From Burkholderiales bacterium (GTDB lineage: Bacteria; Pseudomonadota; Gammaproteobacteria; Burkholderiales; Burkholderiaceae_C), in NCBI GenBank assembly GCA_026400275.1, contig JAPLPK010000022.1, forward strand, positions 475-64,474: a stretch of 64,000 nucleotides of DNA. The letters are read 5' to 3'. Shown here one piece after another: positions 2,543-16,784 of this stretch (position 1 is the stretch's first letter; each line of letters opens with the position of its first letter). The translations under genes and the position numbers were made by a program. The notes below the pieces were generated by a model that saw only the letters and a program-made list of their open reading frames with translations, was not told the origin of the DNA and made no database searches.

Positions 2543-3895
2543 TCAGGCCTGCGCGTTCAGCGTCTCGCCCAGGGCGTTCACCAGGCTGTCGATTTCGGCC
2601 GCGCTGATGATGAAGGGTGGTGCCAGCTGGATGGTGTCGCCACCGTAGCGCACGTAAAAGCCCTTCTTCCACATCGCCATGGCAATTTCGTAGGGGCGGC
2701 GTGCCGGCTCGCCAGGCAGTGCGGCGATGGTGATGCCGCTGGCCAGGCCGTAGTTGCGGATGTCGGTGACGTGCTTGGCACCCTTCAAACTGTGCACCGC
2801 GTTCTCGAAATGCGGGGCCATGCTGCGCACGCGCTGGGGCATGTCTTCCTTGACCAGGATGTCCAGCGTGGCCAGCGCCACGGCGCAGGCCACAGGGTGG
2901 GCCGAGTAGGTGTAGCCGTGGGCAAATTCCAGCATGTAGTCGGGGCCGCCAGCAGCCATGAAGGTGTCGTAGATGTCCTTCTTCACCAGCACCGCGCCCA
3001 TGGGCTGCGAGCCGTTGGTGATCTGCTTGGCCACGTTCATGATGTCGGGCGTGACGCCAAAGGCCTCGGCACCGGTCATCGCACCCATGCGGCCAAAGCC
3101 GGTGATCACTTCGTCAAATATCAACAGGATGTTGTGGGCCGTGCAGATCTCGCGCAGGCGCTGCAAGTAGCCCACGGGCGGCACCACCACGCCAGCCGAA
3201 CCGGACATGGGCTCCACAATGACGGCAGCGATGTTGCTCGCGTCGTGCAGGGTAATCAGGTCTAACAGCTCGTCGGCCAGCTCGGCGCCGCTGGTCGGCA
3301 TGCCGCGCGAGAAGGCGTTGCTTTTGAGCTGGGTGTGGGGCAGGTGATCGGCTTGCAGTGCCTCGCCAAACATCTTGCGGTTGGCACCGATGCCGCCCAC
3401 CGAGATGCCGCCAAAGCCCACGCCGTGGTAGCCCTTTTCGCGGCCAATGAAGCGCGTCTTGCTGGCCTGACCCTTGGTGCGCCAGTAGGCGCGCGCCATC
3501 TTCAGCGAGGTGTCGGCAGATTCCGAACCCGAGCCGGTGAAGAACACGTGGTCCAGGCCGGCGGGCGTCAATTCTTTCAGTTTATTGGCCAGCTCGAACG
3601 ACAGCGGGTGGCCGAACTGGAAGGCGGGCGAGTAGTCCAGCGTTGCCATTTGGTGCGCGGCGGCAGCGGTCAGCTCGGCGCGGCCATGGCCCAGGCCGGA
3701 ACACCACAGGCCGGACAGGCCGTCCAGTATCTGGCGACCGTCGATATCGGTGTAGTAGCAGCCCTTGGCACTGGTGATGATGCGCGGGTCGGCCTTGAAG
3801 TTGCGGTTGCCGCTGTAGGGCATCCAGTGCGCGTCCAGCCAGGCGGCGTCGGTACGGGGGCGTTGGCTGAGTTTGTGGCTGTCGGTCATGTCCAT
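2543..3895 (-). CDS. bauA: Omega-amino acid (beta-alanine):pyruvate aminotransferase, class III
   Basis: WMPYSGNRNF, DGLSGLWC, LLIFDEVITGFGR, PLP lysine in AKQITNG, HGYTYSAHP; start at 3895 or 3889. Confidence 0.88.
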   Translation of the reverse strand: MDMTDSHKLSQRPRTDAAWLDAHWMPYSGNRNFKADPRIITSAKGCYYTDIDGRQILDGLSGLWCSGLGHGRAELTAAAAHQMATLDYSPAFQFGHPLSFELANKLKELTPAGLDHVFFTGSGSESADTSLKMARAYWRTKGQASKTRFIGREKGYHGVGFGGISVGGIGANRKMFGEALQADHLPHTQLKSNAFSRGMPTSGAELADELLDLITLHDASNIAAVIVEPMSGSAGVVVPPVGYLQRLREICTAHNILLIFDEVITGFGRMGAMTGAEAFGVTPDIMNVAKQITNGSQPMGAVLVKKDIYDTFMAAGGPDYMLEFAHGYTYSAHPVACAVALATLDILVKEDMPQRVRSMAPHFENAVHSLKGAKHVTDIRNYGLASGITIAALPGEPARRPYEIAMAMWKKGFYVRYGGDTIQLAPPFIISAAEIDSLVNALGETLNAQA

Positions 3896-3986
3896 GGCGC
3901 GGTCCAGGTAGAAAAAGAATGGCTGGATTCTTGCCGCGCCTGTTACTCTCATAAAGAGTTAAATATCAATCTTCAGTTAGCAGAAT

Positions 3987-5795: not shown

Positions 5796-6767
5796 TCAGT
5801 GAACCGCCAGCTGCATCGCGTTGGCCGGGCGTTCGCCCGCCAGGGCCTGCAGTAAGCTGTGGGTGGCCAGCTCGGCCATGGCGCGGCGGGTTTCGTGGGT
5901 GGCCGAGCCGATGTGCGGCAGCGCGGTGACGCGCGGGTGGTTGCGCAGCGGCGAGTCCTGCGGCAGCGGTTCGGTGGCGAACACATCGAGGCCTGCAGCG
6001 CGCAGGTGGCCGCTGTCCAGCGCGGCCAACAGCGCCGGTTCCTGCACGATCTGGCCGCGTGCGCCGTTGACAAAGATGGCGCCGGGCTTCATCGCGGCAA
6101 ACTCTTGCGGGCCCATCAGGCCGCGTGTGGCGTCCGTCAGAGGCAAGGTCATGGCGACGATGTCGGCACGCGCCAAGGCCTCGGCAAGCGTGACGCGGGT
6201 GGTGTGGCCTGCCAGTACCGGCAGATCGGTATCCGTTTCATTCACATACAGCACCGGCATGCCAAAGCCGAGCGCGGCGCGGCGTGCCAGCGCCTGGCCG
6301 ATGCGGCCAAAACCGATGATGGCCAGTGTCTTGCCGTGCACGTCGGAGCCGAAGAGGTCTACGTCGATGTTCTTCGTCCAGCGGCCTTCGCGCACATGGT
6401 TGGCGAGTTCGACCAGACGGCGGCTGCTCGCCATGATCAGCGAGAACACGGTGTCGGCCGTGGTCTCGGTCAATACGCCGGGCGTATGGCACAGCGTGAT
6501 ACCGCGCTGCGCCAGGTAGTCCAGGTCGTAGTTGTCCACGCCGACCGAAATGCTGGACACTACTTCCAGCTGCGGTGCGGCCCCTAGTTCGGCGGCACCG
6601 AGCTTGACGCTGGAGCCGATCAGGCCATGGGCACCGGGCAGCGCTGCATGAAAAGCCGCCACCTGCTCCGGCTTGCGAGGGTCGGCCACGGTCACGTGGT
6701 GGGCCTCCTGCAAGCGCGCCAGCAGGTCGTCGGGCAGGGATCGGAATACGAGTACGTTTTTACGCAT
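5796..6767 (-). CDS. kguD: 2-ketogluconate(-6-phosphate) reductase, D-2-hydroxyacid dehydrogenase family
   Basis: ISVGVDNYD, TPGVLTETTAD, IIGFGRIG, NGARG, GLDVF, PHIGSAT; position in the kgu cluster. Confidence 0.85.
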   Translation of the reverse strand: MRKNVLVFRSLPDDLLARLQEAHHVTVADPRKPEQVAAFHAALPGAHGLIGSSVKLGAAELGAAPQLEVVSSISVGVDNYDLDYLAQRGITLCHTPGVLTETTADTVFSLIMASSRRLVELANHVREGRWTKNIDVDLFGSDVHGKTLAIIGFGRIGQALARRAALGFGMPVLYVNETDTDLPVLAGHTTRVTLAEALARADIVAMTLPLTDATRGLMGPQEFAAMKPGAIFVNGARGQIVQEPALLAALDSGHLRAAGLDVFATEPLPQDSPLRNHPRVTALPHIGSATHETRRAMAELATHSLLQALAGERPANAMQLAVH

Positions 6768-6775
6768 GGAATCTC

Positions 6776-7783
6776 TCATAGGGCCTGTGCGGCCAGTTGT
6801 TGACGGGTGGGCAAGCCTTCGGTATCACCGAGGACCTGTACGGCACGGGCGCCGATCCAAGCTCCGCGTTGGACGGCTTCGGGCAAGGCCCTGCCTTCGA
6901 GCAAGGCGCTGATCACGCCCACGGCGAAGCCATCGCCGGCACCCACGGTGTCGACCACCTGGGCTACCGGGTAGGCGGCGATGCGGCCACAACCAGCGGG
7001 GCTGTCGAAATAAGCGCCATCAGGTCCGAGCTTGACCACCACCAGCTGGGCGCCCCGCGCACGGTAGAACGCGGCGATGTCTTCCGGCGCCGTGTGGCCG
7101 GTCAGCAGGCGGCCTTCTTCCAGCCCTGGCAGCACCCAGTCGCAGTGCTGCGCCAGATCGTTCAGCGTCTCGCACATCACTTCGGGCGAGCGCCACAGCG
7201 TGGGCCGCAGGTTCGGATCGAAGGAGATCGTGCGACCCGCCGCGCGCATGGTGGCGATGGCCTTGCGCGTGGCATCCAGCGTAGCCGCCGACAGCGCGGG
7301 GAACACGCCGGTCACGTGCAGATGGCGGGCGCGCAGCAGCCAGTCGGCATTGACCGCGTCGGCATCCATGGTGCTGGCGGCCGAGCCGCGACGGTGGTAC
7401 TCCACCGGCGGGTCGCTGCCATCGAGCACCCGGCCCTTGAACTGGAAGCCGGTGCGCTGGCCGGCATCGCAAACCACCTGGGCGCAGTCCACGCCCTCGG
7501 ACTCCAAGGCACTCAGCAGGTAGCGCGCCATCGAGTCGTTGCCCAGGCGGCTGGCCCAGCCTACCTGCAGGCCCAGCCGCGCCAGGCCGATGGCCACATT
7601 GGTCTCGGCACCTGCGGTGCGCTTGTGGAAGCTCTGCACCTGGTCGAGCGGACCGGGTTCGGCGGCCACCAGCATCAGCATGGCTTCGCCCAAGGTCACT
7701 ACGTCGAAATCATGGCTATCTGTACTACCTTCGCCCTGGCGGGCTGCGGTGCGAGCGTCTCCGTGCGGGCGTGCTGCGCTCAT
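6776..7783 (-). CDS. kguK: 2-ketogluconate kinase, PfkB family
   Basis: GEAMLML, AGAETNVAIGLARLG, FDPNLRP, DTVGAGDGFAVG; ATG 7783 overlaps the kguE stop (ATGA). Confidence 0.85.
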   Translation of the reverse strand: MSAARPHGDARTAARQGEGSTDSHDFDVVTLGEAMLMLVAAEPGPLDQVQSFHKRTAGAETNVAIGLARLGLQVGWASRLGNDSMARYLLSALESEGVDCAQVVCDAGQRTGFQFKGRVLDGSDPPVEYHRRGSAASTMDADAVNADWLLRARHLHVTGVFPALSAATLDATRKAIATMRAAGRTISFDPNLRPTLWRSPEVMCETLNDLAQHCDWVLPGLEEGRLLTGHTAPEDIAAFYRARGAQLVVVKLGPDGAYFDSPAGCGRIAAYPVAQVVDTVGAGDGFAVGVISALLEGRALPEAVQRGAWIGARAVQVLGDTEGLPTRQQLAAQAL

Positions 7784-8544
7784 GCGGTTTGCTCCGCCGA
7801 ACGCAGCAGAGCCAGGTGCCGGCGCGTGACCTGCACTAAGTCGTCGCCCTGCAGCGGGAACTCGATGGCGCGCGGCACATTGGTGGGCAGATGGCGCAGC
7901 ACGCCGCGCCAGGGCGCGGCAGAGTCTTCCAGCGGCACGGCCACCCATTTGCCCGGCAGGCGCTGCACACCCTTGCAATGGATATAGCCGACTTGCGCAC
8001 CCAGGATGCGGGCGGCGGCCAGCGGGTCCTCGCCGGTCCAGCACCAGTTGCCCATGTCGAAGGTCATGGGCACATGGCAGCCCAGCGCCGCCAGGCGGCC
8101 GAAAAAGTCCTGTAACAGCGGCAGCGTGCCGGCGGCAGCGGTCTGGTCGTTCTCCACCACCAGCTCCATGCCGTCGCGCTGCAACCAGGGCAGCAGACCG
8201 TCGAGCGCCCGGTCGGGGGTGTAGGCACCCAGCGACATCTTTACCCGGCTGGCGCCCAGCGCCTGGGCGGTGGTGAAGGCACGCTCCAGCGCTGCTCCAT
8301 CCAAGGCGCCATCGGTGGCCCAGATGCCCTCGGGGCTGGACCAGACAACCGCCAGGCCATGCGCCTGCGCGACGGCAGCCTGCTCGGCCAGCTCGTCGGC
8401 CACGCCGCGCTGCAGCTCGCCACGGTATTCGATGCCATCGGCACCCGCCGCTGCCGCGATGCGCGCCAGCTCCGCCTGGCCGACGCGCAGCGCCAGCTCG
8501 GCACCGTAGGAGCCCAGCGATACCAGAACTTGCACGGCGCTCAT
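7780..8544 (-). CDS. kguE: Sugar phosphate isomerase/epimerase (TIM barrel), KguE-like
   Basis: GADGIEYRGE, VVENDQT, MTFDMGNW, YIHCKGV; upstream of kguK and kguD. Confidence 0.8.
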   Translation of the reverse strand: MSAVQVLVSLGSYGAELALRVGQAELARIAAAAGADGIEYRGELQRGVADELAEQAAVAQAHGLAVVWSSPEGIWATDGALDGAALERAFTTAQALGASRVKMSLGAYTPDRALDGLLPWLQRDGMELVVENDQTAAAGTLPLLQDFFGRLAALGCHVPMTFDMGNWCWTGEDPLAAARILGAQVGYIHCKGVQRLPGKWVAVPLEDSAAPWRGVLRHLPTNVPRAIEFPLQGDDLVQVTRRHLALLRSAEQTA

Positions 8545-9287
8545 TTCAGGGCTCCTGCAGACAGAAACTGCTGCAGCTCCGGGGTCTGCGGTGCGGCGAA
8601 CAGCGCCTTGGATTCGCCGGCTTCGTGCACGCGGCCCTGGTGCATGAAGATGGTTTGGTGCGCCATGCGGCGCGCGAATTCCATCTCGTGCGTGACCAGC
8701 ACCATGGTCATGCCGGAGGCCGCCAGCTGCTCCATCACCCGCAGCACTTCGGCGGTGAGTTCGGGGTCGAGCGCCGAGGTCACCTCGTCGAACAGCATCA
8801 CCTCGGGCTCCATCGCCAGTGAGCGCGCAATCGCTACCCGCTGCTGCTGGCCGCCGGACAGCTGCTCGGGGTATGCATCCTTTTTCTCCCGCAGGCCGAC
8901 CTGGCCCAGCACGCGGTCGACGATGGCCTCGATCTGCGCGGCCGTCAGCTTGCGTACGATGCGCGGCGCCAGTGCCACGTTTTCGCCTACCGTCAGGTGT
9001 GGAAACAGGTTGTAGCTCTGGAAGACCATGCCGACATCGCGGCGCAGTTCCAGCAACTGCTTGCGGCTGTGGTCTAGCGTGTGGCCGGCCACGCGGACCC
9101 GGCCGGAGTTGATGGTTTCCAAGCCGTTCAAGCAGCGCAGCATGGTGCTTTTGCCCGAGCCGCTGCGGCCGATGATGGCCACCACCTGGCCCTTCTCGAC
9201 CTGGAACGAAACGCCCTTGAGCACTTCGATGTGTCCGTAGGACTTGTGCACCGCGTGGGCTTCGACGATGGGTTCAGCGAGAGACAT
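8541..9287 (-). CDS. Polar amino acid-type ABC transporter ATP-binding protein
   Basis: GRSGSGKST, LSGGQQQRVAIAR, LFDEVTSALD, VTHE. Confidence 0.93.
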   Translation of the reverse strand: MSLAEPIVEAHAVHKSYGHIEVLKGVSFQVEKGQVVAIIGRSGSGKSTMLRCLNGLETINSGRVRVAGHTLDHSRKQLLELRRDVGMVFQSYNLFPHLTVGENVALAPRIVRKLTAAQIEAIVDRVLGQVGLREKKDAYPEQLSGGQQQRVAIARSLAMEPEVMLFDEVTSALDPELTAEVLRVMEQLAASGMTMVLVTHEMEFARRMAHQTIFMHQGRVHEAGESKALFAAPQTPELQQFLSAGALK

Positions 9288-9924
9288 GGAGTTTCCTTTC
9301 CAGGCGCTTGGCTGCCGACGACAGCGGGAAGCACAGCGCAAAATAAATGACGGCAACGGTGACGAACACTATGAAGGGCTGAAACGTCGCGTTGTTGATG
9401 AGTTGCCCGGCCCGGGTTAGCTCGACCACACCAATGACCGAGGTGATCGAGGTGTTCTTGACGATCTGCACCGAAAACCCAACGGTGGGCGGCACCGCCA
9501 GCCGCAGCGCCTGCGGTAGCACCACATGGCGCAGCTGCTGCCAGCGGGTCATTGCCAGCGATTCGCTGGCCTCCCATTGGCCGTGCGCCACGGCTTCGAT
9601 GCAGCCGCGCCAGATCTCGCCCAGGTAGGCGCTGGCATAGACCGACATGGCCAGCATGGCCGCCACCATGGGTGACAGCTTGACGCCCAGCACCGACAGG
9701 CCGTAGTAGCTGAGGAACAGCACGATCAGCACCGGCGTGCCCTGCACCAGCTGGATGTAGACCATGCTGGCGTTACGCAGCCAAGCGCTGCGCGAAGTGC
9801 GGCACAAGGCCACCACGAAACCGGCCGCCGCCCCACCAACAAAGGCCAGTAGCGACACCAGCAGGGTCCAGCGTGCGGCCAGCAGCAGGATGTTCAGGTG
9901 GTTCCAGGAGAATTCGGTAATCAT
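9274..9924 (-). CDS. Polar amino acid-type ABC transporter permease
   Basis: HisMQ-like: QGTPVL, SAYLGEIWRG, EAA loop. Confidence 0.92.
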   Translation of the reverse strand: MITEFSWNHLNILLLAARWTLLVSLLAFVGGAAAGFVVALCRTSRSAWLRNASMVYIQLVQGTPVLIVLFLSYYGLSVLGVKLSPMVAAMLAMSVYASAYLGEIWRGCIEAVAHGQWEASESLAMTRWQQLRHVVLPQALRLAVPPTVGFSVQIVKNTSITSVIGVVELTRAGQLINNATFQPFIVFVTVAVIYFALCFPLSSAAKRLERKLHVSR

Positions 9925-10658
9925 TTGGCGGCTCCTATCGGGCGGGCCTTCAGGCCCTGGCTCTTTTTCGACAGCCGCTGGCTGCGCGCCACCGCCCGGC
10001 GGCGTCGGAACACCAGGCTACCCAGCAGGTAGAACGACAGCCGCAGCAGCAGGGACAGCGCGATGTAGATCAGCATCACCAGGATGTAGCTCTCGAAGGT
10101 GCGGAAGGTCTGCGAATCGATCTGGCTGGCCACCGCCGTGAGTTCTTCGACCGAGATGGTCGAGACCACGCTGGAGGTCAGCATCATCAGCGTGAACTGG
10201 CTGGCCAGCGCCGGGTAAACCTTCTCGAAGGCCGGCACCAGCACCACGTGGCGTATCGCCTGCCAGCGCGTCATGGCCAGGGCCGCTGCGGCTTCCAGCT
10301 GGGTACGGTGGGTGGCCTGCAGGCCGGAGCGGATGATTTCGGTGGAATAGGCGCCCAGGTTGACGCTCATGGCAATCAGCGCCGCCGTCACCGCATCGAT
10401 CTGCAGGCCGATGGTCGGCAGGCCGAAGAAGATGATGAACAGCTGGATCAGAAAGGGCGTGTTGCGGATGGTCTCGACGTAGGCCGCCACGCCGCGCCGC
10501 ACCCAGGGGCCGCCGTAGCTGGCGGCGATGGCACCACAGGTGCCGACCAGCGTGCCGAGCGCGATGGAGCTAAAGCTCAGCGCCAGGGTCATGCCCGCGC
10601 CTGCGGCAAAGCGGTCTAGCTGGCCCAGTACCGGGCTCCAGTCAAATTGGTAGTTCAT
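9921..10658 (-). CDS. Polar amino acid-type ABC transporter permease
   Basis: RNTPFLIQLF, GAYSTEIIRSG, EAA loop. Confidence 0.92.
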   Translation of the reverse strand: MNYQFDWSPVLGQLDRFAAGAGMTLALSFSSIALGTLVGTCGAIAASYGGPWVRRGVAAYVETIRNTPFLIQLFIIFFGLPTIGLQIDAVTAALIAMSVNLGAYSTEIIRSGLQATHRTQLEAAAALAMTRWQAIRHVVLVPAFEKVYPALASQFTLMMLTSSVVSTISVEELTAVASQIDSQTFRTFESYILVMLIYIALSLLLRLSFYLLGSLVFRRRRAVARSQRLSKKSQGLKARPIGAAK

Positions 10659-10672
10659 GCGGTTTCCTAAGG

Positions 10673-10692
10673 GCCCCGGCGCGGGCCGGGGC
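10673..10692. other. GC-rich hairpin between SBP and permease genes
   Basis: GCCCCGGC-gcgg-GCCGGGGC, 8-bp perfect stem; typical post-SBP mRNA stability element. Confidence 0.5.
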
Positions 10693-10715
10693 GGTCGGGT
10701 GGATGGTCAGCCGCT

Positions 10716-11519
10716 TCAGAACACGGGCAGTACGGGCAGCGGGTTGCCGGTCCACTTGCGCGCAATCGCATCCAGCTCGCCATTGAGCTTGATGTAGGAA
10801 ATAGTGGTGTTCAGCCACTGGTGCAGGTCGAACGCGTCCTTGCGCACGGTCATGGCGTTGGGCTGCAGCGAGAAGGCAAACTTGGCGTCAAATTTGCCCG
10901 CGCCGCGCGCCTTCATGATCTCGACACCGGTGGTACTGGGCAGGGCAATCGCCTCCACCTGGTTGCTGATCAGCGCCTGCGCCGAGGTGGCATCGTCCTC
11001 GAAGCGGACGATGTTGGTGCCGGGAAGCGCCAGCCGGGTGAGTGCGCTGTCCTGCGTGCTGCCGCGCGTCACGCCGACCTTGCGCTTGGCCAGGTCGGCC
11101 AGCTTGGCGTATCTGGCCGTGCTGGGCGCGAAGATGGTCAGCTCGAAGGCGCTGTAGGGCATGCTGAACATAACTGCCTTGGCTCGCTCCGGCGTCGGTG
11201 CCAGGGTGGCGACCAGGAAATCGACCTTGCCCGACTCCAGCGCCGGAATCCGGCTGGGCGAGGTCAGTGGCACCAGCTCCACCGGCACACCCATGTACTT
11301 GCCCAGCAGGTTCGCTACATCCACGTCGTAGCCAGCGGGTTTACCTTCTGCGTCGGTAGTGCCGAACGGTGGCGCACCCGTCACGACACCGATGGTGACG
11401 CGGCCCTTTTTGACGATCTCGCTGACGCTCTGCGCTTGCGCGCCCAGGGTGGTCGCTGCTAACAGCAGTGAAACTAGCAGCGGCTTGGCCAGGCGTTGCA
11501 GGCGGGATTGCTTGTTCAT
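10716..11519 (-). CDS. ABC substrate-binding protein, family 3
   Basis: Signal peptide; PPFG, GYDVDVA, RIPALESGKVD, TPERAKAV. Confidence 0.92.
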   Translation of the reverse strand: MNKQSRLQRLAKPLLVSLLLAATTLGAQAQSVSEIVKKGRVTIGVVTGAPPFGTTDAEGKPAGYDVDVANLLGKYMGVPVELVPLTSPSRIPALESGKVDFLVATLAPTPERAKAVMFSMPYSAFELTIFAPSTARYAKLADLAKRKVGVTRGSTQDSALTRLALPGTNIVRFEDDATSAQALISNQVEAIALPSTTGVEIMKARGAGKFDAKFAFSLQPNAMTVRKDAFDLHQWLNTTISYIKLNGELDAIARKWTGNPLPVLPVF

Positions 11520-11580
11520 GTATGTCTCCATCACGGTAAGTGGGTTGTGCACCGGCGGGATGGGCTGTGAAACACGTCTC

Positions 11581-11700: not shown

Positions 11701-12750
11701 TCAGCTGCGCCGGGTGGACCCGCGCACGTTCAGCGTGCCGGGCAGCAGAATCTGGCGCGGTGGCAGGGTAATGCCGCGCAGGCGTTCAAGCAGGCAGTTG
11801 ATGGCGAAGCGGCCGATGTCGTCAGTGGGCTGGGAGATCGCGCTCAGTCCCGGCCCGACCAGCGGTGCCCATTCGGGGTCGTCGAAGCCGAGCAGGCCGA
11901 TGTCGCGTCCCAGCGTCCAGCCGAGCCGTGCCACGGCGGCCACCACGCGCAGCGCAATCACCGCATTCGCGGCCAGCACTGCACAGGGCTTGGCACCGGC
12001 ATCGCGCCGTAGCGCCCGTAGGGCCGCGTCCAGCGCGGCATCGTCGCCCGGCTGGGCCTCGAACGTGCTGCCCGCCAGCATATCCGGGCGCTCGGCCACG
12101 AAACTGCGGAAAGTCCGCGCGCGCTGTTCGCGCGAACCCACGCCCTTCATCGGTTCGGTGGCGAACAGCAGCTGGCGGTAGTCGGCCTCCACCAGATGTT
12201 CAGCCGCCATGCGCACGGCGGCATCGTTGTCAAGCCCGACCAGGTCGAGCTGGGCATCGCCGCTGCGCCGGTCGATCAGCACTACCGGCTTGTGCAGGCG
12301 CGCCGCGTCGGCCAGCGCCGCCGCGTCATTGCCCAGGGTGTGCAGAATGAAGCCCTCGACCTGGTAGGACGACAGCGCGCGTATGGCCTCGCGTTCCAGT
12401 ACATGGTCGTTGCCAAGGTTAAACAGCATCACCATGTAGCCCGCCTCGCGGCATGCTTTTTCGGCGCCGCGCAGCACGGCCACCGAGAACGAGTTGGACA
12501 CATCCGCCACCACCAGGCCGATCAGCCGGGACTTGCCGCGCTTAAGCGCCTGCGCCATCGGGCTCGGACTGTAGCCGAGCTCGCGCACCGCTGCTGAGAC
12601 GCGGGCCTCGATGTCGGCCGATAGCTGTTCGCCACCCCGGTTCAGAAAGCGCGAGACCGTGGCCTTGGAGACACCGGCGTGGTTGGCCACGTCCTGGATG
12701 GTCAGCGCTGCAGTTCCGGCGCGGCGCGCGGTGGGAGAGGATGGGGGCAT
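11701..12750 (-). CDS. ptxS: LacI-family regulator, PtxS/KguR-like
   Basis: TIQDVANHAGVSKATVSR HTH; upstream of the kgu operon, with matching operators. Confidence 0.85.
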   Translation of the reverse strand: MPPSSPTARRAGTAALTIQDVANHAGVSKATVSRFLNRGGEQLSADIEARVSAAVRELGYSPSPMAQALKRGKSRLIGLVVADVSNSFSVAVLRGAEKACREAGYMVMLFNLGNDHVLEREAIRALSSYQVEGFILHTLGNDAAALADAARLHKPVVLIDRRSGDAQLDLVGLDNDAAVRMAAEHLVEADYRQLLFATEPMKGVGSREQRARTFRSFVAERPDMLAGSTFEAQPGDDAALDAALRALRRDAGAKPCAVLAANAVIALRVVAAVARLGWTLGRDIGLLGFDDPEWAPLVGPGLSAISQPTDDIGRFAINCLLERLRGITLPPRQILLPGTLNVRGSTRRS

Positions 12751-12766
12751 GGCGGGTTTGGGTCCA

Positions 12767-12780
12767 AAAAACCGGTTTCA
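12767..12780. promoter_or_regulatory. PtxS-type operator upstream of the regulator (autoregulation)
   Basis: AAAAACCGGTTTCA (TGAAACCGGTTTTT on the minus strand), 16 bp upstream of the ATG. Confidence 0.75.
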
Positions 12781-12879
12781 CACCGGGTGGACGATTGTGC
12801 CACCGGGCTCCGAATGCGGCGCTGATCGGGGTCCGCGCCGCGCCGCGACATGCCACCACTTTCTACCGCCATCCCTGTC

Positions 12880-13180
12880 TCAATCTCCCAGAATCCTCCG
12901 CTCCTTGGTCAGCTTGCCAAACCGCGCCCTGTCCGCATACGCCTTGGCACCAAACGCTGTGGGTGTCATTGGCGCCACATTGCCGCCGAGTCCGGCAATC
13001 CGCTCCGTCACCGCTTGCGTGGCCAGGATCTCGGCGGGCAGGCAGGCGGGGGCGTAGACGCCGAACACGGTGTCGGCGTCGGCACATCAGGGAACAGCAG
13101 CGAGCGGTGGGGGCTGCCGACGGCCAGCAGCTTGAGCGTGCAGGCGCGCACCTGGTTCAGGCCGATGCCGGGGTCGTGCT
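12880..13180 (-). pseudogene. Degraded C-terminal remnant of a Bug/TctC tricarboxylate-binding protein
   Basis: DPGIGLNQVRACTLKLLAVGSPHRSLLFPDVPT, then a frameshift, then ADTVFGVYAPACLPAEILATQAVTERIAGLGG...RFGKLTKERRILGD*; no 5' half or start. Confidence 0.8.
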
Positions 13181-13203
13181 GCCAGCGCCGGCAGGACGAC
13201 TGA

Positions 13204-13258
13204 TTGCTCCTAAAGTAATAGCTGCTGGTGCAGGTATTGTCTGCGCTATAGGCAATTT
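13204..13258 (+). repeat. Dispersed double-hairpin repeat, copy 2
   Basis: TTGCTCCTAAAGTAATAGCTGCTGGTGCAGGTATTGTCTGCGCTATAGGCAATTT. Confidence 0.85.
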
Positions 13259-13574
13259 ATTGGCACTTTATAGGCGACAGACTTTGAACGTAGGACAGCG
13301 CACCGCCGCGCTGTCGGACAAGCGCCAAATTGGCTCGCAGGCCCGCCCAAGCCTTGCTTTGCCCGGTGTAGAGGAACACATTAAGCCGGTGCCTGGCGAC
13401 GCCCGGCATGGCGGTGCCCCACCAGCCCATCGGTTTTTCAACCTGTCAGCATGCCCGCCTCGCGCGCCGGGCGTGTCTTAAGCCTCGTACCTCCCTCGTT
13501 TGTCCCTGCCACCACGGCGCCATGGCGCCGTGCGTGCAGCCTTTTGCCTCACTTTCCCTTACCGAGTAAACCCC

Positions 13575-14999
13575 ATGGCCCTGTACCAGACTGCCGAGTC
13601 CCACGATCTTTCCATCGAGGATGTGTATTCCAGCGGAGCTTCGGAGCGGCGCTTGCCCAAGTACCGCCTGCCCGACCATTCCACTGCGCCATCGGCGGCC
13701 TACAACCTGGTGCGCGACGAGCTGCTGCTGGACGGTAACTCGCGCCAGAACCTGGCCACGTTCTGCACCACCTGGGTTGAGCCCGAGGTGCAAAAGCTGA
13801 TGGCCGACGCGCTTGATAAGAACATGATCGATAAGGACGAATATCCCCAGACAGCCGAGATCGAAAACCGCTGCGTGCACATCATTGCCGACCTCTGGCA
13901 TGCGCCCAAATCCTGGGACACCATAGGCTGCTCGACCACCGGCTCCAGCGAAGCGGCCATGCTCGGGGGTCTGGCCCTGAAGTGGGCCTGGAAGAAGCGC
14001 CGCGAAGCTGCCGGGTTGCCCACGGACAAACCCAACTTTGTGTGCGGCCCGGTGCAGATCTGCTGGAAGAAGTTTGCCCGCTACTTCGACGTGGAAATGC
14101 GCGAAGTGCCGCTGCGTGGCGACGCCCTGGGCCTGCAGCCCGCCGACCTGCGCGCATACTGCGACGAGAACACCATTGGCGTGGTGGCGACGCTGGGCGT
14201 GACCTTCACTGGCGTGTATGAACCCGTGGCGGCGCTGGCGACCGAGCTGGACGCACTGGAGCGTGACCTGGGGCTGGACATTCCCATCCATGTGGATGCG
14301 GCCAGCGGTGGCTTTGTGGCGCCCTTCATCCAGCGCGAGCTGGAGTGGGATTTCTGCGTCGACCGGGTCAAGTCCATCAACGCGTCGGGCCACAAATACG
14401 GCCTGGCACCGCTGGGTGTGGGCTGGGTGGTGTGGCGCGCCAAGGCCGACCTGCCTCAGGAGCTGATCTTCAACGTGGACTACCTGGGCGGCAATATGCC
14501 GACCTTCGCGCTGAACTTCAGCCGGCCCGGCGGCGAAATCATCGCCCAGTACTACAACTTTCTGCGCCTGGGGCGCGACGGCTACACCCGCATCCAGCAG
14601 GCTTGCTCTGACACCGCGCAGTGGCTGGCGCAGGAGATCGCCAAGTTCAGCCCGCTGGAACTGGTGTATGACGGCAAGGACGGCCTGCCTGCGGTCTGCT
14701 ACAAGCTGAAGGACGGGGTGGAGCATGGCTTCACCTTGTACGACCTGTCCGAGCGCGTACGCATGCGCGGCTGGCAGATTGCCTCGTACCCGCTGCCTTC
14801 GGACCGGCAAACCGTGGTGGTGCAGCGCGTGTTGGTGCGCCATGGTGTCAGCCGCGATTTGATCGCCCTGCTGCTGGACGACTTGCGCAAGGCCATCGAC
14901 TTTTTGCAGCACAACCCGGTGCTGCGTTCCGATGCGGGCCCCAGCTTCAGCCACGGCGCGCTGGCTGAGCCGGACCCGCGCGTGTTGGCCGCAGCGTGA
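13575..14999 (+). CDS. gadB: Glutamate decarboxylase (PLP-dependent)
   Basis: DGNSRQNLATFCTTW, NMIDKDEYPQ, STTGSSEAAMLGG, HVDAASGGF, SINASGHKYG (PLP Lys). Confidence 0.93.
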   Translation: MALYQTAESHDLSIEDVYSSGASERRLPKYRLPDHSTAPSAAYNLVRDELLLDGNSRQNLATFCTTWVEPEVQKLMADALDKNMIDKDEYPQTAEIENRCVHIIADLWHAPKSWDTIGCSTTGSSEAAMLGGLALKWAWKKRREAAGLPTDKPNFVCGPVQICWKKFARYFDVEMREVPLRGDALGLQPADLRAYCDENTIGVVATLGVTFTGVYEPVAALATELDALERDLGLDIPIHVDAASGGFVAPFIQRELEWDFCVDRVKSINASGHKYGLAPLGVGWVVWRAKADLPQELIFNVDYLGGNMPTFALNFSRPGGEIIAQYYNFLRLGRDGYTRIQQACSDTAQWLAQEIAKFSPLELVYDGKDGLPAVCYKLKDGVEHGFTLYDLSERVRMRGWQIASYPLPSDRQTVVVQRVLVRHGVSRDLIALLLDDLRKAIDFLQHNPVLRSDAGPSFSHGALAEPDPRVLAAA

Positions 15000-16699
15000 T
15001 GGTCGCATTTCTGACCTTTCTGCAGAAGAACCCCTACATCCTGCTGTTTCTGGTGGTGGGGCTGTCCGTGTGGGTAGGGCGCGGCACCATCAAGGGCTAT
15101 GGCCTGGGCGCGGTGGCGGCGGCCATTGTCATCGGCTGCGGTGTGGCGACCTGGGGTGCGGCGTACGGTGTGCGCTTCGAGCTGGACAACTTCACCAAGA
15201 GCCTGTTTTATTACCTGTTCATGTACGGCGTGGGCTTGCGTGTGGGGCCGTCGTTTATCAACAGCCTGAAGGGGGACGGGCTGAAGTTCACCGTGCTGGC
15301 GGTTCTATCGTCCTTCCTGGGCCTGGGCATCGTGGTGCTGGGCACGCGCTGGCTGTCTTTGCCTGTGGGCGCGGCGGGCGGCATTCTAGCGGGCTCGCAA
15401 ACCATGTCGGCGGCCATAGGCGCGGCCGAACAGGCCATCACCTCCGGCGTGGTGCCGCTGCCGCGGGGTACTACGGCCGAGGCCGCGACGGCGATGATTG
15501 CCCTGTCCTACGGCATCACCTACATCTGGGGCACGGTGGGCATCATCCTGATCTGCAAATACCTGCCGCGCTGGTGGGGTGTGGACGCGCGCAGCGCCGC
15601 CAAGACCTACGAGGTGGAGCATGGTGTGCCGAATGTGGACGACGCTGGCCTCAGCGGCTACCGCCCGTTCGATCTGCGTGCCTACCGCCTGGTCAACCCC
15701 GCGCTGAGCGGCCAGAGCATCGCGCAGTTCCGCACGCGCTACGCCCAGTACCAGATAGAAAACGTGGAACGCGGCAAAGAGCTGCTGGGAGCCGACCCGG
15801 CGCTGGTTCTACAGCTGGGCGACGTGATCGCATTGGGCGGCAGCCTGGGCGCGTTGACCGATCACATGGGCCTGATCGGCCCCGAGGTGCCCGATGCGCG
15901 GGCGCTCAACATCCCGCTGGACCAGGCCGAGATTCTGGTCACGCACCGTGGTGCGGTTGGCAAGGCGCTGAAGGAGTTCAGCCGTTCGCCCATTGCCGGT
16001 CAGGTGCAGCTGGTGGGCCTGGAGCGCGGCGGCGCGCCCCTGCCCATGGGGCTGGAGACGCGTTTGCAGCGCATGGATGTGCTGCACCTGGTGGGCTTGC
16101 GCAGCGCGATAGACCAGGCGGCGGCCTTGATCGGCAAAGTGGCGCGGCCCAGCACCGCGACCGATCTGCTGACCCTGTCGCTGGGCATGATTCTGGGTTT
16201 GCTGATCGGCCAGATACAGGTGCCCGCCTTCGGTGCATCGGTGGGCCTGGGCAATGCGGGTGGCCTGCTGGTGTCGGGCATTGTCGTGTCGTCGCTGGTG
16301 TCGCGCGTGCGCTTTTTTGGCAACACGCCGAACGCCGCGCGCAACATCCTGGAAGACATGGGCCTGATCTTCTTTGTGGCCATCGTGGGCGTGAACGCTG
16401 GCGCCAACTTGTTGTCACAGCTCAATGGCGTGGTTGCGCTGAAGATCTTTGCGCTGGGCTTTGTGGCCTGCACCATTCCGCCGTTCATCGTCTGGGCGAT
16501 TGGTTTCCATGTCTTCAAGATCAACCCCGCCGTGCTGATGGGGGGCGTGGCCGGTGCGCGCAGCCATTCCGGCCCGGCCCGCGAGGCCGCCAAGGAGATT
16601 GGTAGCAGCGTGCCGTGGATAGGCTTCCCGGTGGCCTACGCGGTGTCTGGCATCTTGTTGACGGTGTTTGGCTACTTCGCCATGTTGCTAGCGGCCTAA
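14996..16699 (+). CDS. AspT/YidE-family exchanger with TrkA_C domains
   Basis: Duplicated membrane halves (GILAGSQTMSAA; GGVAGARSHSGP) flanking a cytoplasmic region; start overlaps the gad stop. Confidence 0.88.
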   Translation: MMVAFLTFLQKNPYILLFLVVGLSVWVGRGTIKGYGLGAVAAAIVIGCGVATWGAAYGVRFELDNFTKSLFYYLFMYGVGLRVGPSFINSLKGDGLKFTVLAVLSSFLGLGIVVLGTRWLSLPVGAAGGILAGSQTMSAAIGAAEQAITSGVVPLPRGTTAEAATAMIALSYGITYIWGTVGIILICKYLPRWWGVDARSAAKTYEVEHGVPNVDDAGLSGYRPFDLRAYRLVNPALSGQSIAQFRTRYAQYQIENVERGKELLGADPALVLQLGDVIALGGSLGALTDHMGLIGPEVPDARALNIPLDQAEILVTHRGAVGKALKEFSRSPIAGQVQLVGLERGGAPLPMGLETRLQRMDVLHLVGLRSAIDQAAALIGKVARPSTATDLLTLSLGMILGLLIGQIQVPAFGASVGLGNAGGLLVSGIVVSSLVSRVRFFGNTPNAARNILEDMGLIFFVAIVGVNAGANLLSQLNGVVALKIFALGFVACTIPPFIVWAIGFHVFKINPAVLMGGVAGARSHSGPAREAAKEIGSSVPWIGFPVAYAVSGILLTVFGYFAMLLAA

Positions 16700-16710
16700 T
16701 TATGGAAAAT

Positions 16711-16766
16711 TTGCTATGAAAAAAGCAGCTGCTACCGCAGGAATTACCTGCGTTAGCAGCCATTTT
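16711..16766 (+). repeat. Dispersed double-hairpin repeat, copy 3
   Basis: TTGCTATGAAAAAAGCAGCTGCTACCGCAGGAATTACCTGCGTTAGCAGCCATTTT, between convergent genes. Confidence 0.85.
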
Positions 16767-16784
16767 TATGCTTAGAAAATTGAC

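Follow-up and report, generated by a model that had tools for sequence, protein, structure and literature searches.

A 64,000-nucleotide window of the Burkholderiales contig JAPLPK010000022.1 (assembly GCA_026400275.1) carries, at positions 13575–16699, a two-gene cassette in which a predicted glutamate decarboxylase (GAD) of the GadB type is encoded directly ahead of a transporter of the AAEx (AspT/YidE/YbjL) family. We propose that the two products probably constitute a glutamate/γ-aminobutyrate (GABA) decarboxylation–exchange module, whose substrates, antiport mode and electrogenicity are predicted from sequence. GAD usually pairs with the APC-family carrier GadC, to which glutamate/GABA exchange in bacteria is ascribed. 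The proposal is supported chiefly by a gene-neighbourhood survey, suggested as a check in a preliminary description of this DNA, in which every informative locus (79 of 79) was found to pair an orthologue of the carrier with a predicted glutamate decarboxylase of one of three kinds.

A GadB-type decarboxylase gene coupled to an AAEx transporter gene

The cassette consists of the following features.
13575–14999, plus strand: GadB-type glutamate decarboxylase gene (TIGR01788, PF00282, alignment to E. coli GadA/B)
14999–16699, plus strand: AAEx transporter gene, 566 aa, with an alternative GTG start at 14996 (PF06826 twice, TrkA_C, alignment to AspT 8XW5)
14996–15001, plus strand: stop/start overlap (G TGA TG) coupling both genes (direct sequence reading)

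Both genes are intact, with products of 474 and 566 aa, respectively. The junction reads GCG TGA TGG, in which the decarboxylase stop TGA occupies 14997–14999. The GTGA overlap of the preliminary description, in which a GadB-like gene was coupled to an AspT/YidE transporter, is present, its GTG at 14996 being in frame with the transporter. The ATG at 14999, which overlaps the decarboxylase stop by one base (TGATG), is the likelier start, because the homologues of the transporter are 566 aa long and begin at this ATG. With either start the two genes are translationally coupled. The overlap is peculiar to the present genome, and the other GadB-type loci have spacers of 12–106 nt.

The product of the first gene is predicted to be a GadB-type glutamate decarboxylase, a pyridoxal 5'-phosphate (PLP)-dependent enzyme of fold type I and group II. 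It matches PF00282 and scores 625.6 bits against the glutamate decarboxylase equivalog model TIGR01788 (cut-off 380.4), and its residues 29–455 align to E. coli GadA/GadB with an E-value of 1e-171. Alignment to the structures 1XEY and 1PMM further indicated that GadB residues T62 and F63 (in NLATFC), D86 and E89 (IDKDEYPQ), D243 (HVDAASGG), the PLP lysine K276 (SINASGHKYG) and Y305 are kept; T62, F63 and D86 are the residues by which GadB holds the glutamate side chain, and all three are present. Against the PanP model for pyridoxal-dependent aspartate 1-decarboxylase, the enzyme scores 29 bits versus a cut-off of 606. Near its C-terminus, a PSFSHG motif contains the counterpart of GadB His465, the residue that shuts the active site of GadB at neutral pH. 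This His is followed by a 14-residue tail here, unlike in E. coli GadB, where presumably a single residue follows it, and it is kept in the 11 relatives of the same type whose C-terminus is readable (the sequence of locus L011 is masked there), with 8–29 residues after it.

The product of the second gene belongs to the AAEx family (TC 2.A.81) and has the AspT fold, but it is not an AspT equivalog. It contains the Asp-Al_Ex domain PF06826 in two stretches with a TrkA_C domain (PF02080) at residues 318–380, and scores 124.9 bits against the duplication-domain model TIGR01625 (cut-off 71.95). Its best curated family match is TIGR03802, the equivalog model of the AspT aspartate:alanine antiporter, with a score of 373.5 bits that lies under the cut-off of 546.95. 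Adjacency to aspartate 4-decarboxylase (AsdA, also AspD), which we take to be a defining feature of that model, was not observed, and no AsdA-type protein was found among the window genes scanned. The Pfam scan detected no APC domain in the transporter, which is thus not a GadC by sequence. The protein aligns over its full length with the AspT structure 8XW5, and its AlphaFold2 model (pLDDT 79, pTM 0.66) has AspT structures as its top and only strong Foldseek matches (8XW5, 8Y1X, 9OQY and 9VDC; E-values of 1e-22 to 1e-25, TM-scores of 0.68–0.77) at about 21% identity. Helical hairpins are formed in the model by residues 125–133/138–148 and 510–520/524–534, and two β-rich modules lie at approximately 224–382.

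The carrier is linked to predicted glutamate decarboxylases of three kinds

When one genome per species was scanned, 367 relatives of the transporter emerged. The best 80 loci (68–89% identity) were taken; their flanks were searched with tblastn, and neighbouring genes were annotated by our own open reading frame (ORF) calls and Pfam. A glutamate decarboxylase gene adjoins the transporter gene in 79 of these loci, in 77 of them directly upstream on the same strand. The association is thus not accidental. The partners were distributed as follows.
Decarboxylase type found here: 12 loci; 86–91% identical to the present enzyme
Second GadB type: 6 loci; 43% identical to the present enzyme, TIGR01788 score 522 bits
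Orn/Lys/Arg-family decarboxylase of about 910 aa (long form): 61 loci; usually 50–60 nt upstream
No upstream DNA: 1 locus (L080); 7 bases upstream, partner unreadable

The genomes carrying these loci include Rhodoferax, Variovorax, Pseudomonas, Bradyrhizobium, Methylomirabilis, Planctomycetota and others. The long-form gene lies directly upstream of the carrier gene in 59 of its 61 loci, the exceptions being L028, where it is downstream, and L064, where it is upstream on the opposite strand. The protein of about 910 aa from a Bradyrhizobium locus matches Rv2531c (PDB 9N0O/9N0N) over its full length with 753 bits and keeps Rv2531c residues H405, K406, the PLP lysine K570, R576, T606 and N731, while R718 is replaced by Lys. 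A 2026 study showed that Rv2531c decarboxylates L-glutamate and is inactive on lysine, ornithine and arginine (PMC13506015). Since the classical enzyme and the long form are found in one and the same position next to this carrier, the genomic context supports this re-assignment of long-form "Lys/Orn/Arg" decarboxylases to glutamate.

A separate survey sampled 400 genomes of the phylum and revealed GadB-type genes in 11 other genomes, at least four of these genes lying beside APC-type permeases and one beside a glutaminase gene. One locus (L128, 5937–9210, minus strand, genome G430) has a GadB-type gene, whose product is 76% identical to the present enzyme and ends in GFHHG, followed by a gene for a carrier of a separate AAEx clade (33% identical) with an N-terminal extension that resembles a signal peptide. 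By sequence, this locus is an independent pairing of GAD with an AAEx carrier.

The predicted substrate site is constant across partner enzymes

In AspT, aspartate is bound between two helical hairpins by T130, S132, Y167, L431, T496 and S498 (PMC12462496). The corresponding residues of the present transporter are T135, S137, Y175, L456, S522 and S524 (566-aa numbering), so that only T496 differs, being replaced by Ser. The adjoining tip residues differ, with AspT Q131 corresponding to M136, D495 to R521 and L497 to H523. Whichever enzyme is the partner, each of the 79 orthologues has the same two hairpin-tip sequences, GSQTMSAAIG and VAGARSHSGP. GadB-linked and long-form-linked carriers can be told apart at a single column of the alignment (M/L at 455, 567-aa numbering). 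The simplest reading is that the carriers of all partner groups would share one substrate pair, because they are about 70% identical and their predicted pocket is unchanged.

The arginine of hairpin 2 is also found in E. coli YbjL (GARTCA versus GARSHS here) and in the separate, GadB-linked AAEx clade of genome G430 (GGRNST). It is absent from E. coli YidE and from the AAEx paralogues that stand in tandem with the carrier in 18 loci, which have Q or G at this position. The arginine therefore appears to track linkage to glutamate enzymes, as a correlation, since it is missing from the paralogues and YidE and present in an independent clade linked to GAD.

The second AAEx paralogues in these 18 of the 80 loci lie near the first carrier gene, often directly downstream, and are 28–33% identical to the present transporter. 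They occur in five loci with the second GadB type, twelve with the long form and L080 (for example L014 7702–9441 and L019 7714–9411) and in none of the loci with the present decarboxylase type. They lack both the Arg and the His of hairpin 2, and the L014 copy, the sole one scored, reaches 508 bits against TIGR03802 and is closer to the AspT model than the present transporter.

A two-gene cassette with a retained carrier and probably exchanged enzymes

DNA similarity to four congeneric genomes spans positions 13572–16693 only, with unrelated flanks, and none of the 16 neighbouring window genes was found beside the cassettes of those genomes. Likewise, the neighbours of the cassette in Pseudomonas, Variovorax and Rhodoferax loci are mutually unrelated. 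Because only the two genes are common between genomes and their contexts differ even within the genus, these comparisons identify the pair as a mobile cassette of exactly two genes that has moved horizontally. It is present in 6 of 16 species of the genus, where orthologues of the carrier are 82–85% identical and have the GadB type upstream wherever this is readable (the copy in G011 is split across contig ends). Among 33 other genera of the family, one orthologue only was found, which is 63% identical, belongs to a sister genus and has a long-form partner. No compositional sign of recent transfer was detected, the G+C content and the G+C content at third codon positions (GC3) both matching those of host genes. 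PLSDB contained no plasmid-borne orthologue, only AspT-type paralogues of at most 34% identity.

A maximum-likelihood tree of the carriers was rooted with paralogues. In it, carriers linked to the long form take the basal position, and all GadB-linked carriers fall in one clade with an approximate likelihood-ratio (SH-aLRT) support of 89, inside which the carriers of the present decarboxylase type form a 100%-supported subclade within those of the second GadB type. Identity between the two GadB types is only 43%, against about 70–74% between their carriers, which makes it probable that the decarboxylase was exchanged twice and the carrier retained.

The present transporter is closest to the Pseudomonas copies (89%; clade support 96) and 82–84% identical to the congeneric Rhodoferax copies, whereas for the decarboxylase the identity is 87–89% to the Pseudomonas copies and slightly higher, 90.8%, to those of Rhodoferax. 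These opposite affinities may reflect recombination within the cassette.

Proposed function and alternative explanations

In the proposed module, the AAEx carrier would import external glutamate in exchange for internal GABA, and the GadB-type enzyme would convert glutamate to GABA and CO2 with the consumption of one cytoplasmic proton per turn. AspT catalyzes the exchange of Asp1- for Ala0 (PMC12462496). By analogy, swapping Glu1- for GABA0 would carry one negative charge into the cell and would be electrogenic, so that each turn would raise the cytoplasmic pH and build up membrane potential, which could provide acid tolerance, energy from glutamate, or both. What glutamate and GABA have in common is a distal carboxylate and an amine, not the α-carboxylate. 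R521 of hairpin 2, which adds a positive charge at the tip, is a plausible anchor for this shared distal carboxylate.

The gene content of the host, a freshwater/soil bacterium, is consistent with this assignment. Its assembly (4.55 Mb in 249 contigs, 96% complete) contains one GAD gene and one AAEx gene, namely the present pair, and no match to GadC (TIGR00910) was found anywhere in it. The long-form GAD was not found in the genome either, the sole match being an ordinary family frame of 765 aa with 37% identity. The idea of the preliminary description that an AAEx carrier takes the place of GadC as a glutamate/GABA exchanger, for acid resistance or the generation of proton-motive force (PMF), thus gains support from the linkage to three decarboxylase kinds, the invariant hairpins and the lack of GadC. 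That description had also allowed that such a pairing might already have been characterized; the literature that we searched contained no paper describing a GAD–AAEx pairing, and a paper on Fibrobacter yidE that was checked is unrelated to it.

Several observations weigh against the proposed exchange. Equivalogs of gabT and gabD lie side by side on another contig, so that GABA could be burned internally rather than exported, and antiport is not assured, since plain exporters also occur in the AAEx family. Rv2531c acts in the GABA shunt of M. tuberculosis, and the report on it mentions no antiporter or exchanger (PMC13506015). Moreover, the glutamate specificity of the long-form partners is extrapolated from that one characterized enzyme, with about 50% identity in the alignment by a by-eye estimate, and the clade that unites the GadB-linked transporters has an SH-aLRT of only 89%. 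In addition, scans of the upstream region revealed no promoter, regulator or acid-responsive element.

The main rival explanation, which we regard as unlikely, is that the decarboxylase feeds GABA through GabT and GabD to succinate, with the carrier acting as a glutamate importer, or as an exporter of GABA only, rather than as an obligatory exchanger; the pair would then serve metabolism and not pH or energy coupling. The gabT and gabD equivalogs on the other contig are in line with such a route, as are the succinate and glutamate exporters that the AAEx family includes according to the AspT papers, and the hairpin-2 Arg is shared with E. coli YbjL. YbjL is reported to be a glutamate exporter. 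In the loci examined, however, gabT and gabD never lie within the cassette, and the enzyme retains the counterpart of the acid-gating His of GadB. The adjacency of decarboxylase and transporter genes in all informative loci is also the signature of precursor/product exchange, as in GadBC and AspD–AspT.

A different substrate pair, such as aspartate/β-alanine, aspartate/alanine or cysteate/taurine, is improbable in our judgement. It would fit the Asp:Ala antiporter model as the best curated match of the carrier, the conservation of most of the aspartate-contacting residues of AspT and the AptA-type ω-aminotransferase gene at 2543–3952, on which the preliminary description had based its speculation about an Asp/β-alanine cycle with an aminotransferase 10 kb away. 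That speculation is not supported: the GadB residues for the glutamate side chain are kept, the contexts of the cassette elsewhere are unrelated, and a sugar-acid operon intervenes. The aminotransferase gene is unlinked to the cassette in every other genome examined, the TIGR03802 score is well under its cut-off with no aspartate 4-decarboxylase gene adjacent, the PanP score is far below threshold, and the partner enzymes of each of the three types point to glutamate. Asp/β-alanine and Asp/Ala cycles were rejected in view of the enzyme residues, the scores against family models and the absence of a conserved aminotransferase linkage. Still less probable, to a degree that we consider very low, is a transporter with an unrelated role, for instance a TrkA_C-gated export of ions or organic acids, that merely travels with the decarboxylase gene. 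Most AAEx members are indeed uncharacterized, but the adjacency has probably outlived at least two replacements of the decarboxylase type and is spread over several phyla, while the flanking genes are never conserved.

Beyond the exchange module itself, the data can be joined into a wider and more tentative reading, to which we give slightly less than even credence. One AAEx lineage may be the fixed part of a widespread soil and freshwater glutamate/GABA system, in which at least two exchanges of the decarboxylase would have taken place, the long-form Rv2531c type giving way to one GadB type and this to another, and in which the hairpin-2 Arg would have converted an AspT-like carrier into a glutamate/GABA exchanger. 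Since Glu1-/GABA0 would be handled by this carrier in the way that AspT handles Asp1-/Ala0, PMF could be generated near neutral pH; the module might then be energy-conserving and not only a GadC-like defence against extreme acid.

Surroundings of the cassette in the window

The window has a G+C content of 64%. Two further features border the cassette.
12751–13574, no strand assigned: 824-bp upstream spacer with a probable gene fragment and a dispersed repeat (promoter and Rfam scans, DNA comparison with congeners)
16703–16778, plus strand: copy of the dispersed hairpin repeat just past the transporter stop (alignment to the upstream copy)

No sigma-70-like promoter and no Rfam match were found in the upstream spacer. 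A stop-to-stop frame on its minus strand (12880–13086), with GVYAPA and PAEIL, resembles by eye the C-terminus of periplasmic binding proteins of the Bug/TctC type. It lacks the N-terminal part and is probably a gene remnant. A 246-aa ORF in the spacer (12741–13481) matched no family and is unlikely to be a gene. Copies of an AT-richer hairpin repeat at 13195–13270 and 16703–16778 bracket the cassette in the same orientation (both plus strand), with 43 of 77 aligned columns identical. An interpretation of these repeats as insertion scars was set aside, since they are likely to bracket the cassette by chance. A terminator-like hairpin was detected on the minus strand at 16738–16725, and the downstream repeat copy probably also ends the transcript.

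Upstream of the cassette lie a LacI-type regulator gene and a sugar-acid operon, and downstream a convergent aldehyde dehydrogenase gene, DadA and ArgP, none of which is conserved with the cassette. The operon (5796–11552, minus strand) is kguE/kguK/kguD-like, encoding a xylose-isomerase-like TIM barrel, a PfkB kinase and a 2-hydroxyacid dehydrogenase, and is joined to a family-3 amino-acid-type ATP-binding cassette (ABC) importer under the LacI-type regulator. The adjacent aldehyde dehydrogenase was rejected as GabD: its gene is convergent, its score reaches none of the curated cut-offs, and the genuine gabD lies on the other contig. No GabP was found in the genome. The product of the aminotransferase gene at 2543–3952 (minus strand) passes the model of the Caulobacter ω-aminotransferase AptA with 720 bits (cut-off 500); the gene is accompanied by a divergent LysR regulator of its own and bears no relation to the cassette. 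No glutaminase or Gad regulator gene was found near the pair among the window genes scanned. The neighbours in GadB-type loci include a multicopper oxidase, Ada, a molybdopterin oxidoreductase, RNase H and PdxA, and no regulator, porin, glutaminase or gabT/gabD gene is common to this window and those loci.

Significance and comparison with known systems

If the proposal is correct, glutamate/GABA exchange would have a second, unrelated and elevator-type family of carriers, and genome-based predictions of glutamate-dependent acid tolerance and GABA release would change, as such carriers currently bear no annotation beyond "aspartate:alanine exchanger family" or "putative transport protein". Now that AspT structures are solved, the Arg/His hairpin tip would directly suggest how AAEx carriers may select their substrates. 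GABA is also a plant–microbe signal, and a dedicated GABA exporter in rhizosphere genera may, speculatively, matter ecologically.

The pair belongs to a known kind of system, the decarboxylase/antiporter pairs. It resembles GadB/GadC of E. coli and Lactococcus in the placement of a decarboxylase gene beside a membrane-carrier gene and in the type of enzyme, which keeps the PLP lysine and the residues that bind glutamate; a counterpart of the C-terminal His is present too, though followed here by the 14-residue tail. In contrast to GadC, its carrier is not an APC-family protein but a predicted AAEx carrier of the elevator type with cytoplasmic TrkA_C domains. Transporter family and fold are shared with AspD(AsdA)/AspT of Tetragenococcus halophilus (TC 2.A.81; 8XW5, 8Y1X), and electrogenic precursor/product exchange is expected as in that system, whereas the partner here is a glutamate α-decarboxylase instead of an aspartate β-decarboxylase. 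The Rv2531c-type long-form ("cloaked") GAD (9N0N/9N0O; PMC13506015) likewise converts glutamate to GABA and occupies the slot of the GadB-type enzyme in 61 of the 80 loci, but it is a protein of about 910 aa from the KOR/OKR_DC family, unlike the present GadB-type enzyme. E. coli YbjL has the AAEx architecture and the hairpin-2 Arg in common with the present transporter, but differs from it as a distant paralogue without an adjacent decarboxylase gene. What is new here is that classical and long-form enzymes share one orthologous carrier, whose predicted substrate site is constant across partners, in a bare unit of two genes.

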